This document shows positions 18,622 to 22,214 of a DNA stretch of 54,935 bases, in pieces. How positions within the stretch are numbered: the stretch's first letter is position 1; the number at the start of each line of letters is the position of its first letter. The notes below the pieces were generated by a model. It was not told the DNA's origin, did not search any database, and worked only from the letters and a program-made list of their open reading frames with translations. Made by a program: the position numbers and the translations under genes. Origin of the DNA: Gammaproteobacteria bacterium (lineage in GTDB: Bacteria > Pseudomonadota > Gammaproteobacteria > Tenderiales > Tenderiaceae); contig JAJRUN010000002.1 of the NCBI GenBank assembly GCA_024277755.1, forward strand, positions 1 through 54,935, read 5' to 3'.

Positions 18622-18654
18622 AAAAAAGCCTTACCGGAACCACCCGGCAAGGCT
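18622..18654 (-). terminator. Intrinsic terminator of the small secreted protein gene
   Basis: Minus strand AGCCTTGCCGG-gtggtt-CCGGTAAGGCT followed by a T run, immediately after the stop at 18660. Confidence 0.75.
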
Positions 18655-18659
18655 GACAA

Positions 18660-18968
18660 CTACAGACAGGGATCTTCGACTGGATCGGTGATGGAACCAA
18701 AAACCTGCGTCATTGAACCACCCTGAATAATTTGCACAATCTGCGTAAAACCAAAGGTAAAACTAAAAAACTGACAGATTGCATTAGGATCACTGCTATT
18801 GGTATTACTCTGGGAGATATTCATATTACTGCTGGATAAAGAAAACGAATTATTGGTAAAACTGGTGGTGTTGTTGGTATTGGTGTTTGTCCAGTTGCTT
18901 TGCGCCAAGCTGTTGCCTGTCGCAAAAACAGAAATGGCTGCCACCAATGCCAAATGACGTATTTTCAT
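18660..18968 (-). CDS. Small secreted Asn/Ser/Thr-rich hypothetical protein (102 aa)
   Basis: GGAGG RBS just upstream of ATG 18968; Sec signal MKIRHLALVAAISVFATGNSLA; own downstream terminator; no recognisable family. Confidence 0.75.
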   Translation of the reverse strand: MKIRHLALVAAISVFATGNSLAQSNWTNTNTNNTTSFTNNSFSLSSSNMNISQSNTNSSDPNAICQFFSFTFGFTQIVQIIQGGSMTQVFGSITDPVEDPCL

Positions 18969-19099
18969 AGCTATTACCTCCATGTAATCATTGAAATAGA
19001 ACAAGTATAAATACTCTCTACACCATCGATTAAAGGCAATCTCACCCTGTTAGTCAATCATAAAGTCCGCTCAGGCCTATATTTTAAACGTTTCTTTGA

Positions 19100-20299
19100 C
19101 TATTCATGCCGCAGAGCCTCTATCGGATCTAGCCGCGCCGCCTTACGCGCCGGGACATAACCAAACACCACCCCCACCACCACTGAAAAGACAAACGCCA
19201 GCAGAATGATACTACCGTCAAAGACCAGCGGTACCTGCAAGGCCTTGGTGATGAAGTAAGTCGCCAACAGGGCAAGCAAAATACCAATGACGCCGCCAAC
19301 AGATGACAGCACCACCGCCTCAACCAGAAATTGACGCTGCACCTCTTTCTCCAGTGCACCGACAGCCAGACGAATACCGATCTCGCGTGTGCGCTCGGTA
19401 ACAGATACCAACATGATATTCATAATGCCAATACCACCAACAATGAGACTGACAGCGGCCACAGCACCGAGCAATGAGGTCATGGTTTCGGTAGCGCCGG
19501 TCATGGTTCTGGCGATATCTTTCATATCAATAACGCTGAAATCATCTGCCTCGCCCGGGCCGATGTGGCGCCGTTCACGCATCAGCAATTCCACATCACG
19601 CTTTGCCTTGCTGGTGTCGTCGCGGGCGGAGAGATAGATAAGCCTGACCTTCTTTTGGCCGGAGATTAAGCGCCAGTGGGCACGTAACGACATCAACACC
19701 ACATCATCCTGATCCGAGCCCATGGCCGACTGGCCTTTGCTGACCAGTAAACCAATGACTTCGCAAGCGACCTTACCAAGGCGAATGGTCTCACCGATAG
19801 AATCGAGATTGCCAAACAACTCCCGCTGCAACGTCGCACCCAACAGGCAAACCGCTGCCCCAGCACGCTGTTCACTGTCAGTGATGAATCGGCCCCGCGC
19901 CAGTCTCCAGTTGCGCACAATCAGGTAGTCGTTTTCCATGCCGGTAACACTGGTGGTCCAATTGTTGCTGCCATACACCACTGTGACTGCTTTGCTGGTA
20001 ACGCCCGCAGCGGCAACAACGGCGGGGAGATCACGCCGCAAGGCCTCGGAGTCGGCTATTTCAAGTGGTTTGGCAGCCCCGCGGGAACCACTCACGAAGC
20101 GCTGGCCTGGACGCAAGATCAGCATATTGCTGCCCAGACTTTCGATCTGAGCGCTGATCTTGGCGCTCGTACCATTGCCTATAGTGACCATAATAATCAC
20201 CGCAGCAACACCAATAATAATCCCCAACATGGTCAGGGACGAACGCAGCAGATTACGGCGAATCTCACGCAGGGCCAGCGACAGGGCACTCCACCACAT
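19100..20299 (-). CDS. MacB/FtsX-family ABC exporter permease
   Basis: LRSSLTMLGIIIGVAAVI, GGIGIMNIMLVSVTERTREIGIRLAVGA, PARKAARLDPIEALRHE. Confidence 0.93.
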   Translation of the reverse strand: MWWSALSLALREIRRNLLRSSLTMLGIIIGVAAVIIMVTIGNGTSAKISAQIESLGSNMLILRPGQRFVSGSRGAAKPLEIADSEALRRDLPAVVAAAGVTSKAVTVVYGSNNWTTSVTGMENDYLIVRNWRLARGRFITDSEQRAGAAVCLLGATLQRELFGNLDSIGETIRLGKVACEVIGLLVSKGQSAMGSDQDDVVLMSLRAHWRLISGQKKVRLIYLSARDDTSKAKRDVELLMRERRHIGPGEADDFSVIDMKDIARTMTGATETMTSLLGAVAAVSLIVGGIGIMNIMLVSVTERTREIGIRLAVGALEKEVQRQFLVEAVVLSSVGGVIGILLALLATYFITKALQVPLVFDGSIILLAFVFSVVVGVVFGYVPARKAARLDPIEALRHE

Positions 20300-20976
20300 C
20301 AGCGGGATGCCTCGTGCTGAACTGCGCCATCAAAAAAATGTACCGTTCGGTCTGCATAGGCAGCGATGTCGGCCTCGTGGGTGACCATGACAATGGTCAG
20401 GCCACGCGCCTGATTGAGTCGCACCAGCAATTCCATAATTTCGTGGCCACGGGCACTATCCAGATTGCCAGTGGGTTCGTCAGCCAACAACAGAGCCGGG
20501 TCAGTCACCAAAGCGCGGGCAATGGCAACGCGCTGTTGTTGGCCGCCGGAGAGTTCAGTTGGGGTATGAGCTGCGCGCCCCTCCAGCCCCACCGCTGCCA
20601 GAGCCGCCAGAGCCTTGGTTCGACGTTGGGCGCGGGGCATGCGGCGATAGACCAACGGCAATTCAACATTCTCCAGCGCACTGGTGCGCGCCAGCAGGTT
20701 GAAACCCTGAAAGACAAAACCAACAAAGTGACGCCGCAACAGGGCACGCTGATTGCGCGACAGGGTTTGCACCGGGCAGCCCTGAAAATCATATCCACCT
20801 TCGCTGGGGGTATCGAGAAAACCAAGGATATTCATACAGGTGGATTTGCCCGAGCCACTGGGGCCCATCATGGCAATAAACTCACCAGCGCTGACCCTGA
20901 GACTGACATTCCGCAATGCCTGTACCGCTGCCGCCCCCTTGCCGTAAATCTTACTTAAGTGCTCAAGTTCGATCAT
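20299..20976 (-). CDS. MacB/LolD-type ABC ATP-binding protein
   Basis: [44 protein letters not shown]. Confidence 0.95.
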
Positions 20977-22214
20977 CAGTTTTTGCTGCTGGCATCGGTG
21001 ATAACAGGCATACCAATCTGCAAATCACCACTCAGAACCTGCGTCACACGGCCATCACTGGCACCCGTTTCAATCTCAATGGCACGGGGCTGATTAGCTG
21101 CCAATAACCAGACCTGCTTGAGCGGCTTACCCTGCCGGGTTGAGCGGCCACGGCTGTCCCAACGCGGCATGAGCTGATCCATAGCTCCCGCTTTCTGTCT
21201 GGCTTGGGGTGTTGGCGGCGCAAAACGCAGCGCGGCATTTGGAATAAGCAGCGCGTCAGCGATCTGCTCAACAATGATATGCGCGGTAGCCGTCATACCG
21301 GGACGCAACAGCAAGGCCTCATTATTGAGCGCAAGCATGGTTTCATAGCTGACCACACCGCCTTCGCTAGAGGGGGCCAAGCGCACCTGGGTAATGCTGG
21401 CGGGAAAAACCTGATCACGGTAGGCATCCACCGTAAAGGTAGCGGCCTGCCCCTCTTTTACCTTGCCAATATCGGCCTCGTCCACCGTCACCCGCAGCTC
21501 CATCTGCGCCAGATTTTCTGCCAGCGTAAAGAGCACAGGTGCTTGCAGGGATGCGGCGACGGTCTGACCGGGTTCGATCTGGCGCTTGAGCACTATGCCA
21601 TCAATGGGTGAGCGGATGATCGCCTTGGCCAGACGGGTTCGTTCAACATCCAGAGTGGCGCGGGCCTGTGAGACCTGAGCCTTGGCACTAGCTTCATCGG
21701 CCTTGGCCCGGGCGTAGGCGGCCTGGGCGGCATCCTGATCCTGCGGCGGACAAAGCCCCTTTACCGCCAGGGTCTGGCAGCGCGTTAGTTTAAGCTCGGT
21801 TTCCAACACCGTGGCGGCCGCCTGCAACACCCGGGCCTCGGCTACTTCCAGCGCCGCCTGGGTCTGAACCACCTTGGCCTGCTGTTCATCGGTGTTGAGG
21901 CGGGCCAACACCTGCCCTTGTTTGACCCGGTCGTTGAAGTCTACCAGTACACTTTCAATGATCCCTGACATTTCACTGCCAACATCCACCTGATTGAGCG
22001 GCTCCAGGGTGCCGGTGGCGGTCACCCGAATCGTGAGCTCACCACGCACCACCTCGCTAGTGACAAATTGCAGCGCGGCCTCGTCATTGGCGGCAAACAG
22101 ACGAAACAAGGCCGCCCCAGCAAAGAGCAGCAATAAAATGATAATAATCAGCCCCCGGCGACGAGGCTTTTGCTGAGTCAATACCTGCTCGACGGTTGGT
22201 TGCGGCTGGTTCAT
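20976..22214 (-). CDS. MacA-like periplasmic adaptor (membrane fusion protein)
   Basis: N-terminal TM, ATGTLEPLNQVDVGSEMSG, IRSPIDGIVL, VDEADIG, LRPGMTA motifs. Confidence 0.92.
   Translation of the reverse strand: MNQPQPTVEQVLTQQKPRRRGLIIIILLLLFAGAALFRLFAANDEAALQFVTSEVVRGELTIRVTATGTLEPLNQVDVGSEMSGIIESVLVDFNDRVKQGQVLARLNTDEQQAKVVQTQAALEVAEARVLQAAATVLETELKLTRCQTLAVKGLCPPQDQDAAQAAYARAKADEASAKAQVSQARATLDVERTRLAKAIIRSPIDGIVLKRQIEPGQTVAASLQAPVLFTLAENLAQMELRVTVDEADIGKVKEGQAATFTVDAYRDQVFPASITQVRLAPSSEGGVVSYETMLALNNEALLLRPGMTATAHIIVEQIADALLIPNAALRFAPPTPQARQKAGAMDQLMPRWDSRGRSTRQGKPLKQVWLLAANQPRAIEIETGASDGRVTQVLSGDLQIGMPVITDASSKN

Follow-up and report, generated by a model that had tools for sequence, protein, structure and literature searches.

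A lineage-restricted, Sec-targeted small protein of Tenderiales-like Gammaproteobacteria as a candidate cargo of a neighbouring MacAB-TolC-type pump

A 54,935-nucleotide stretch of DNA from a gammaproteobacterium of the Tenderiaceae (contig JAJRUN010000002.1 of assembly GCA_024277755.1; this whole stretch is termed the window below) carries, on the minus strand at 18660..18968, a gene for a small secreted protein of a previously undescribed family that is restricted to Tenderiales-like Gammaproteobacteria and is found repeatedly beside a MacA-ABC-MacB operon. The most likely pathway for this protein, which is put forward tentatively, is export by the Sec system, oxidation in the periplasm and release through a MacAB-TolC-type pump. 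This would be a variation on a familiar theme, in which a small Sec-delivered protein is handed to a MacB-type tripartite pump. The genome of the window is 2.65 Mb in size and 85% complete. An earlier reading of the DNA, made from its letters without database searches (the sequence-only reading), had described the gene product as a secreted orphan, low in charge and rich in Asn, Ser and Thr, and had proposed that it is a functional amyloid or surface fibre subunit, or a heavily modified peptide, possibly handled by the adjacent exporter. The features of the gene, here called the orphan, are as follows.

18660..18968, minus strand: open reading frame (ORF) of the small secreted protein, with ATG at 18968 and TAG at 18660 (102 codons plus stop)
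18903..18968, minus strand: signal peptide, residues 1-22, MKIRHLALVAAISVFATGNSLA, with the signal peptidase I site SLA↓Q
18849..18902, minus strand: Asn/Thr/Ser-rich tail, residues 23-40, variable in length and predicted to be disordered
18663..18848, minus strand: conserved beta domain, residues 41-102, including the C-terminal DPCL, as indicated by AlphaFold and family conservation
18774-18776, minus strand: codon of Cys65
18666-18668, minus strand: codon of Cys101
18977..18981, minus strand: Shine-Dalgarno sequence GGAGG, 8 nt before the ATG
19052..19057, minus strand: −35-like hexamer TTGACT of the gene's own promoter
19029..19034, minus strand: −10-like hexamer TTTAAT, preceded by a conserved ATTGCC and with a non-canonical T at −11
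18627..18654, minus strand: intrinsic terminator, a hairpin with a 12-bp stem followed by TTTTTTG

A recount of the translated gene reproduced exactly the composition reported in the sequence-only reading, namely a 22-aa signal peptide, an 80-aa mature chain with no Lys, Arg or His, Asn, Ser, Thr or Gln at 32 of the first 40 mature residues, and two Cys, at mature positions 43 and 79, which flank the segment FFSFTFGFTQIVQII. The mature chain has a mass of 8.7 kDa, a computed pI of ∼4 and four Asp/Glu residues. According to sequence rules the signal peptide, MKIRHLALVAAISVFATGNSLA, which is directly followed by QS, has the n-region MKIRH, a 13-aa hydrophobic core and the SLA↓Q site, and its residues 4-16 are modelled as a helix by AlphaFold. 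The Ala at position −1 is nearly invariant in the family alignments (at least 90%), and Gln is the mature N-terminus across the family. Judged by these sequence features, the product is a Sec-targeted precursor that is cleaved after Ala22. Two other kinds of product were considered and rejected. A lipoprotein would carry the lipobox L-[AS]-[GA]-C, which is absent: the cleavage region reads NSLA↓QS, and the sequence contains no Cys until residue 43 of the mature chain. In the case of a precursor of a ribosomally synthesized and post-translationally modified peptide, the N-terminus is a Sec signal peptide and not a leader, and no enzyme gene is conserved beside the cassette. The proposed heavy modification of the peptide found no support either, since no gene for a modifying enzyme is a conserved neighbour.

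The family to which the protein belongs is small and closed. A word-indexed search of 5.8 billion proteins returned 19 homologues, a number that rose to 35 after iteration with a 37-sequence profile, and a full scan of 1.84 billion representatives with a hidden Markov model gave 16 clusters at 50% identity. Both the profile search of these representatives and the iterated search confined the family to proteins of ∼100 aa from the same lineage, and all homologues are 99-112 aa long bar one, whose start is called too long. They come from Candidatus Tenderia electrophaga (Tel_08965) and from metagenome-assembled genomes (MAGs) of unclassified Gammaproteobacteria from biocathodes, groundwater and sediments. 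The family is carried by 13 of 61 genomes (the window's own and 60 relatives), nearly all of them of the window's taxonomic family. Pairwise dN/dS values among homologues are 0.09-0.21 and, together with the conservation of the homologues, show that this is a real protein under purifying selection. As the selection acts in the minus-strand frame, no weight was given to an ORF of 52 aa on the opposite strand (18799-18957). The protein has no significant match in Pfam, NCBIfam, PHROGs or a sequence-profile search of the PDB, the only Pfam match being a sub-threshold, low-complexity one to New_glue, and an Rfam scan of the whole window was without a match. The description of the product as a Sec-type secreted orphan is thus borne out, with sensitive homology searches describing a closed and lineage-restricted family and matching no known soluble one.

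Some members of the family need comment. The 99-aa protein deposited for Tel_08965 (locus L018:9885-10223 in CP013099) begins with MGAASSAWA, seemingly at an internal alternative start, while a start 13 codons upstream (MKIRYLALAAALS...) restores the signal peptide, the promoter spacing and the ribosome-binding site (RBS); the GenBank start is probably mis-called. Two decayed copies were also found. One, at L049:11988-12200 in a biocathode MAG, has an in-frame stop and has lost the first Cys, and it adjoins a TehB-like methyltransferase gene and TrkH at the place where the window has the MacAB operon. The other (G011 C2:195496-195648; L027:9996-10130) retains the C-terminal half only and, as found by a whole-genome search, has one TAG inside the match.

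The gene neighbourhood is what connects this protein to a pump. In the window the orphan ORF is separated by a 131-bp gap from the stop of a MacB-type permease gene (19100), and the two are co-directional. The sequence-only reading had recognized a MacAB-type exporter at this distance upstream, and Pfam and NCBIfam identify all three of its genes.

19100..20299, minus strand: MacB-type permease (Pfam MacB_PCD 1.1e-48 and FtsX 2.5e-21; NCBIfam MacB 3e-77)
20299..20976, minus strand: ABC ATPase of the MacAB-type pump (Pfam and NCBIfam)
20976..22214, minus strand: MacA-like periplasmic adaptor, a membrane fusion protein (NCBIfam MacA 6.8e-48, with RND_mfp above its cut-off; Pfam HlyD_D23 and HlyD_3)

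Among ∼31 distinct copies of the orphan with usable flanks, which represent at least 15 genomic contexts in all, 12 lie within 380 bp of an operon of this same MacA-ABC-MacB subfamily, in three clades and three orientations. Type A, in which the orphan follows MacB co-directionally, comprises the window and six distinct proteins with 56-89% identity; its outer flanks vary (LpxL, an Acyl_transf_3 gene plus LpxL, or a PLP enzyme), and TehB and TrkH are found upstream in only some of the loci. Type B, found in the 'MCQYF' subgroup, is divergent from MacA, and type C, found in the 'LCQNF' subgroup of a distant lineage, is convergent after MacB. The MacB and MacA of the type C lineage best match the window's own pump and not its paralogues. 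In a maximum-likelihood tree, types A, B and C form three separate supported clades, and unlinked copies are nested within the type A clade. Random placement beside one given operon would be expected in ∼0.1% of relocations, by our estimate of two slots among ∼2,500 genes, a share far below that observed. Adjacency has arisen repeatedly, or an old adjacency has been kept amid changed surroundings, and each of these points to a functional tie, with an insertion-prone site beside the operon as the chief alternative. An interim view of the adjacency as incidental was revised when types B and C were found. Across the at least 15 contexts there are no conserved neighbours other than MacAB; the neighbouring LpxL-type acyltransferase gene, which is convergent, does not accompany the orphan consistently. 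The pump itself is widespread, with a MacB orthologue of 67-88% identity in 9 of 12 related genomes, while a tenth (G004) has only matches of 32-33%.

The orphan appears to be an autonomous unit that consists of a sigma-70-like promoter, a 5′ untranslated region of ∼50-60 nt, a strong RBS, the ORF and an intrinsic terminator. Alignment of the upstream regions of 13 family loci, from at least 10 genomic contexts, revealed the pattern TTGACT(AA)-N17-TTTAAT/TTTACT, with ATTGCC before the −10 element, 38-60 nt 5′ of the ATG in 12 of the 13 copies. The −35 element has the form TTGAC[TGC] across the family, with CTGACT in L020, and L023 has CTTAAT at the −10 position. The alignment also shows that the GGAGG/GGAG core is kept, and most family copies in other contexts end in a comparable hairpin and T-run; for the window's copy, inspection of the sequence and a hairpin scan agree with the earlier assignment of its own GGAGG RBS and its own terminator. 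The 2.65-Mb genome contains only three TTGACT-N17-TTTA[AC]T sites, and one of the others is the promoter of tRNA-Phe, 15 nt upstream of the tRNA gene. Upstream of this tRNA-Phe(GAA) gene (G000 contig C105:875-994, minus strand) stands TTGACTAA-N-TTTAAT, in which the spacer measures 17 nt. That a tRNA gene has the same architecture suggests that TTTAAT can serve this organism as a −10 element in spite of its T at −11. The promoter of the orphan is, from its sequence, probably strong and the protein probably highly expressed. A strict sigma-70 scan missed this promoter because it demands an A at position 2 of the −10 element. A sigma-54 reading of the conserved TTGC element was rejected, as the GG-N10-GC spacing fits one locus only. 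With its own conserved promoter at every copy, the orphan is not an operon member of the pump, although read-through from macB is possible since no terminator follows macB.

What would be exported is, on current predictions, a compact domain with a flexible tail. Two AlphaFold2 runs, with alignments of 19 and 37 sequences, gave the same five antiparallel strands (residues 41-46, 49-54, 65-72, 75-82 and 85-92; pLDDT ∼80, range 72-87), while residues 18-36 have a pLDDT below 50 and are taken as disordered. Among homologues the Asn/Thr tail varies in length and composition and is Gly/Phe-rich in some. Conservation is concentrated elsewhere: F42, Q53, Q66, F68, Q79 and C101 are invariant in the family alignment, and the C-terminal half follows the pattern sFs-S-x-x-N-M-x-I-S-Q ... 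F-C-Q-F-F-S-F-x-F-G ... I-V-Q-I-I-Q-G-N-S-F-T-Q ... D-P-C-L. In one subgroup the first Cys shifts from FCQFF to FSQCF, a move of two residues (i to i+2) that keeps it on the same side of its strand and is consistent with an intramolecular disulfide to the flexible C-terminal DPC motif. A single intramolecular disulfide between strand 3 and the DPC motif is hence predicted from the covariation of the Cys position, the AlphaFold models and the presence of DsbA-like genes in the genome, and the disulfide loop of the sequence-only reading gains support from that covariation. Foldseek searches of the PDB with two models gave nothing significant (best E ∼0.8-1), the top non-significant matches being to partial, open beta-meander sheets of domain-swapped FABP/CRBP barrels.

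The favoured pathway can be set out in three steps. First, the Sec system would export the precursor, with cleavage after Ala22, as the sequence and the conservation of the family suggest. Second, the resulting 8.7-kDa acidic chain would consist of a flexible Asn/Thr tail and a ∼60-aa domain with a five-strand antiparallel beta-sheet, in which the DPC motif would be stapled to strand 3 by one periplasmic disulfide (AlphaFold, Cys covariation, DsbA-like genes). Third, the folded protein would be taken from the periplasm by the neighbouring MacA-ABC-MacB with a TolC-like duct and released to the cell surface or the medium, a step suggested by the recurrent neighbourhood and by the precedents of STII and dispersin/CexE. 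MacB-type transporters accept their substrate in the periplasm and expel it via MacA and TolC, and do not carry out transport across the inner membrane (PMC5985334). The genome has at least eight genes of TolC-like OEP type, and the mature chain is within the ∼10-kDa limit for folded MacB/TolC cargo (limit from PMC5985334), near which the 10-kDa dispersin lies (PMC5985334). The orphan thus shows three attributes of a MacAB-TolC cargo, namely a Sec signal peptide by sequence rules, a suitable folded size and a genetic association with the pump that is not universal.

The best-documented protein cargo of MacB-type transporters is STII, a heat-stable enterotoxin of E. coli, which is Sec-delivered and oxidised by DsbA (PMC5985334). 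Like STII, the orphan is made as a small precursor with a Sec signal peptide and is predicted to form a disulfide in the periplasm, and its genome holds DsbA-like and TolC-like genes; STII is expelled from the periplasm by MacA/MacB/TolC (PMC5985334), and the orphan gene adjoins a MacA-ABC-MacB operon. The two are, however, unrelated in sequence and fold. STII has 48 aa and two disulfides, while the mature orphan has 80 aa and one predicted disulfide, is strongly acidic with an Asn/Thr-rich tail, and has nothing that suggests toxicity, and its export by the pump is suggested by gene neighbourhood only. A second comparison is with dispersin (Aap) and CexE of enteric E. coli, surface or coat proteins exported by dedicated MacB-type tripartite Aat/Cex pumps (PMC5985334, PMC7943197, PMC7344145). 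They resemble the orphan in being Sec-dependent, beta-rich proteins of ∼10 kDa with their own promoter (PMC5985334, PMC7943197, PMC7344145). They differ in that the orphan has no homology to them in Pfam or NCBIfam, has Gln as its mature N-terminus and not a Gly acylated by AatD, has no AatD-like acyltransferase linked to it across the family, is acidic rather than cationic, and is predicted to lack flanking helices. The pump also differs from Aat/Cex, being here a conserved chromosomal operon and not a plasmid-borne dedicated system.

Several observations weigh against release by the pump. The linkage is not obligatory, as ∼19 copies lie elsewhere: the T. electrophaga copy is between GFA and DUF1499, ∼870 kb from its MacB, a sister-genus copy is between the asparagine synthase gene (AsnB) and cysS, and others are beside pgaAB, MobA, an RND pump and further genes. 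One 100%-complete Tenderia genome (G002) has the pump and no orphan. The flanks of the MacAB operon vary between genomes, and the slot after macB is filled by a cysteine-rich 285-aa ORF in G002 (L028:3659-4516) and by two ORFs of 435 and 110 aa in G050 (L030:2200-3833), so that the adjacency could be due in part to a site prone to insertions, or to an old neighbourhood combined with local inversions. With its own promoter the gene is never dependent on that of the pump, and its −10-like hexamer has T at −11, where the canonical base is A. Confidence in the AlphaFold model is no more than moderate (mean pLDDT 65-70, pTM ∼0.5), and Tel_08965 goes unmentioned in the T. electrophaga metatranscriptome paper, its supplements and the literature searched. 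The earlier suggestion that the adjacent exporter handles the peptide consequently stands in part: the MacAB linkage is recurrent (12 of ∼31 copies) and is seen in three clades and three orientations beside the pump, but it is not obligatory, the gene is not an operon member, and in T. electrophaga the two loci are far apart.

These same observations are the substance of an alternative, in which the protein works within the periplasm or at the periplasmic side of the outer membrane without a functional tie to MacAB, and the adjacency is historical or marks an insertion-prone site. Promoter and terminator accompany the gene in every context, ∼60% of copies are unlinked (T. electrophaga included), the pump operon belongs to the conserved core, occurs in G002 without the orphan and has different flanks in different genomes, and one inversion can turn type A into type B or C. 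Yet adjacency persists while both outer flanks change (the window versus L045/L054), and it spans three deep clades in which the orphans are 31-45% identical and one lineage's MacB is only 42% identical. A pump-independent envelope protein is considered rather unlikely, and release by the MacAB-type pump continues to be favoured.

Additional observations were made at the loci discussed. In T. electrophaga and G003, macB is followed by an ORF of 203-213 aa and then by FolD and Rrf2 homologues (tblastn, 69-90% identity to G005 genes), and the flank downstream of macB looks prone to gain and loss. At L020:7776-11985 and the syntenic L021-L024 (sister genus g4), the family gene is always between the AsnB-type gene and cysS; that an Asn-rich, two-Cys protein should have these flanks is odd, though probably a coincidence. 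In two MAGs (L047:5063-8303 and L048:5147-8306) the family gene is divergent from pgaA (PgaA_barrel plus TPR) and pgaB (deacetylase plus GHL13), which are export genes for the biofilm polysaccharide PNAG. Two of the unlinked copies nevertheless adjoin efflux genes: at L043:4-2586 an RND (ACR_tran) pump gene lies 235 bp upstream of the copy, and at L004:1440-2266 an SMR (Multi_Drug_Res) gene lies 171 bp downstream of it.

The functional amyloid or surface fibre of the sequence-only reading would be formed by stacking of the Phe/Ile/Gln-rich strands into cross-beta fibres after export, which is compatible with MacAB-dependent export. CsgA is recognized by tandem, imperfect repeats of ∼20 aa of the form S-x5-Q-x-G-x-G-N-x-A-x3-Q, and FapC by three conserved repeats with linkers and by a fapA-F operon. 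The orphan is similar to both in being secreted, rich in Asn, Gln, Ser and Thr, poor in charge (with no basic residues in the mature chain) and beta-prone, above all in its core. Moreover, the modelled open single-sheet meander would leave a hydrophobic face exposed and hence probably requires a partner, the best-ranking though non-significant Foldseek matches are themselves open, domain-swapped beta-meanders, a strong promoter would fit an abundant structural protein, and the two copies divergent from pgaAB adjoin biofilm polysaccharide genes. Nevertheless, internal repeats do not exceed shuffled controls (best self-alignment score 28, compared with a shuffled mean of 26; 65 of 200 controls equalled or exceeded the observed score) and Pfam shows no Curlin_rpt or other amyloid-family match at E≤0.1, which agrees with the earlier remark that repeats of CsgA or FapC type are absent. 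A scan for the CsgG channel (PF03783) was negative in the 85%-complete genome and positive in control genomes; for the FapC type, there are no repeats and no conserved non-MacAB neighbours, although no search was aimed at the Fap machinery. The conserved neighbours of the orphan include neither a nucleator nor a chaperone gene, and the predicted conserved disulfide and the consistent, compact five-strand AlphaFold domain, which set it apart from CsgA and FapC, point to a globular unit. The amyloid proposal has therefore found no positive evidence and is regarded as improbable.

Two further explanations would give the pump a different part. One is that the protein is a Sec-dependent, bacteriocin-like antimicrobial that uses the MacAB-type pump for release, self-protection or both. 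Lactococcin 972 is a small Sec-exported beta protein whose gene neighbours those of an ABC ATPase and an FtsX-fold permease, and the orphan, likewise a small Sec-exported beta protein, adjoins an ABC pump with an FtsX-type permease, whose ATPase matches the generic L_ocin_972_ABC model at 1.8e-58, below the cut-off of that model (197 versus 255 bits). A small secreted protein with a predicted disulfide, a patchy presence (13 of 61 genomes), divergent subtypes within a single genus and decayed copies would also fit an antimicrobial. Against this, lactococcin 972 belongs to a Gram-positive family without a disulfide, the orphan has no Lcn972-domain homology in Pfam or NCBIfam and no homology to a bacteriocin family in these or in further family scans, and the present pump includes a MacA adaptor with which to cross the outer membrane. 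The cassette is not accompanied by a dedicated immunity gene, the pump operon is conserved, resembles a housekeeping one and occurs without the orphan, and the protein is strongly acidic and not amphipathic-cationic, all of which makes an antimicrobial very unlikely.

The other is that the orphan is a periplasmic accessory partner that docks on the periplasmic domain of the MacB-type transporter and is actuated by mechanotransmission, on the model of TesA with YbbAP or EnvC with FtsEX. Type VII ABC systems often use a periplasmic partner that is encoded by a neighbouring, sometimes divergent, gene (PMC12646458, PMC5985334), and the orientation of the orphan to the pump varies and includes the divergent type B. 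But a MacA adaptor marks a tripartite efflux assembly, and the pump is highly conserved while the orphan is dispensable and fast-diverging, unlike an obligate partner, so that this role is thought highly unlikely. Release as a cargo of the MacAB-TolC-type pump hence remains the tentatively preferred reading.

As to function, an extracellular role in a surface coat or biofilm matrix is our most plausible guess. A bolder form of this idea, which is given distinctly low odds, is that the orphan represents a new lineage-specific structural protein exported by MacAB-TolC, made abundant by a tRNA-grade promoter and self-assembling through the open face of its beta-sheet into an acidic, Asn/Thr-decorated coat or amyloid-like matrix on cell, electrode or mineral surfaces; if true, it would constitute a curli-independent route to an extracellular beta-sheet polymer. 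Should the link to the pump be only positional, the protein would be an ordinary lineage-specific secreted orphan. The Tenderiales are uncultured electroautotrophs that are studied for biocathodes and mineral oxidation, and their surface proteins are almost unstudied. If the link is functional, the orphan would be a natural protein cargo for MacAB pumps outside the enteric pathogens, and one gene and one pump would provide a simple handle on how the Tenderiales build their surfaces and biofilms.

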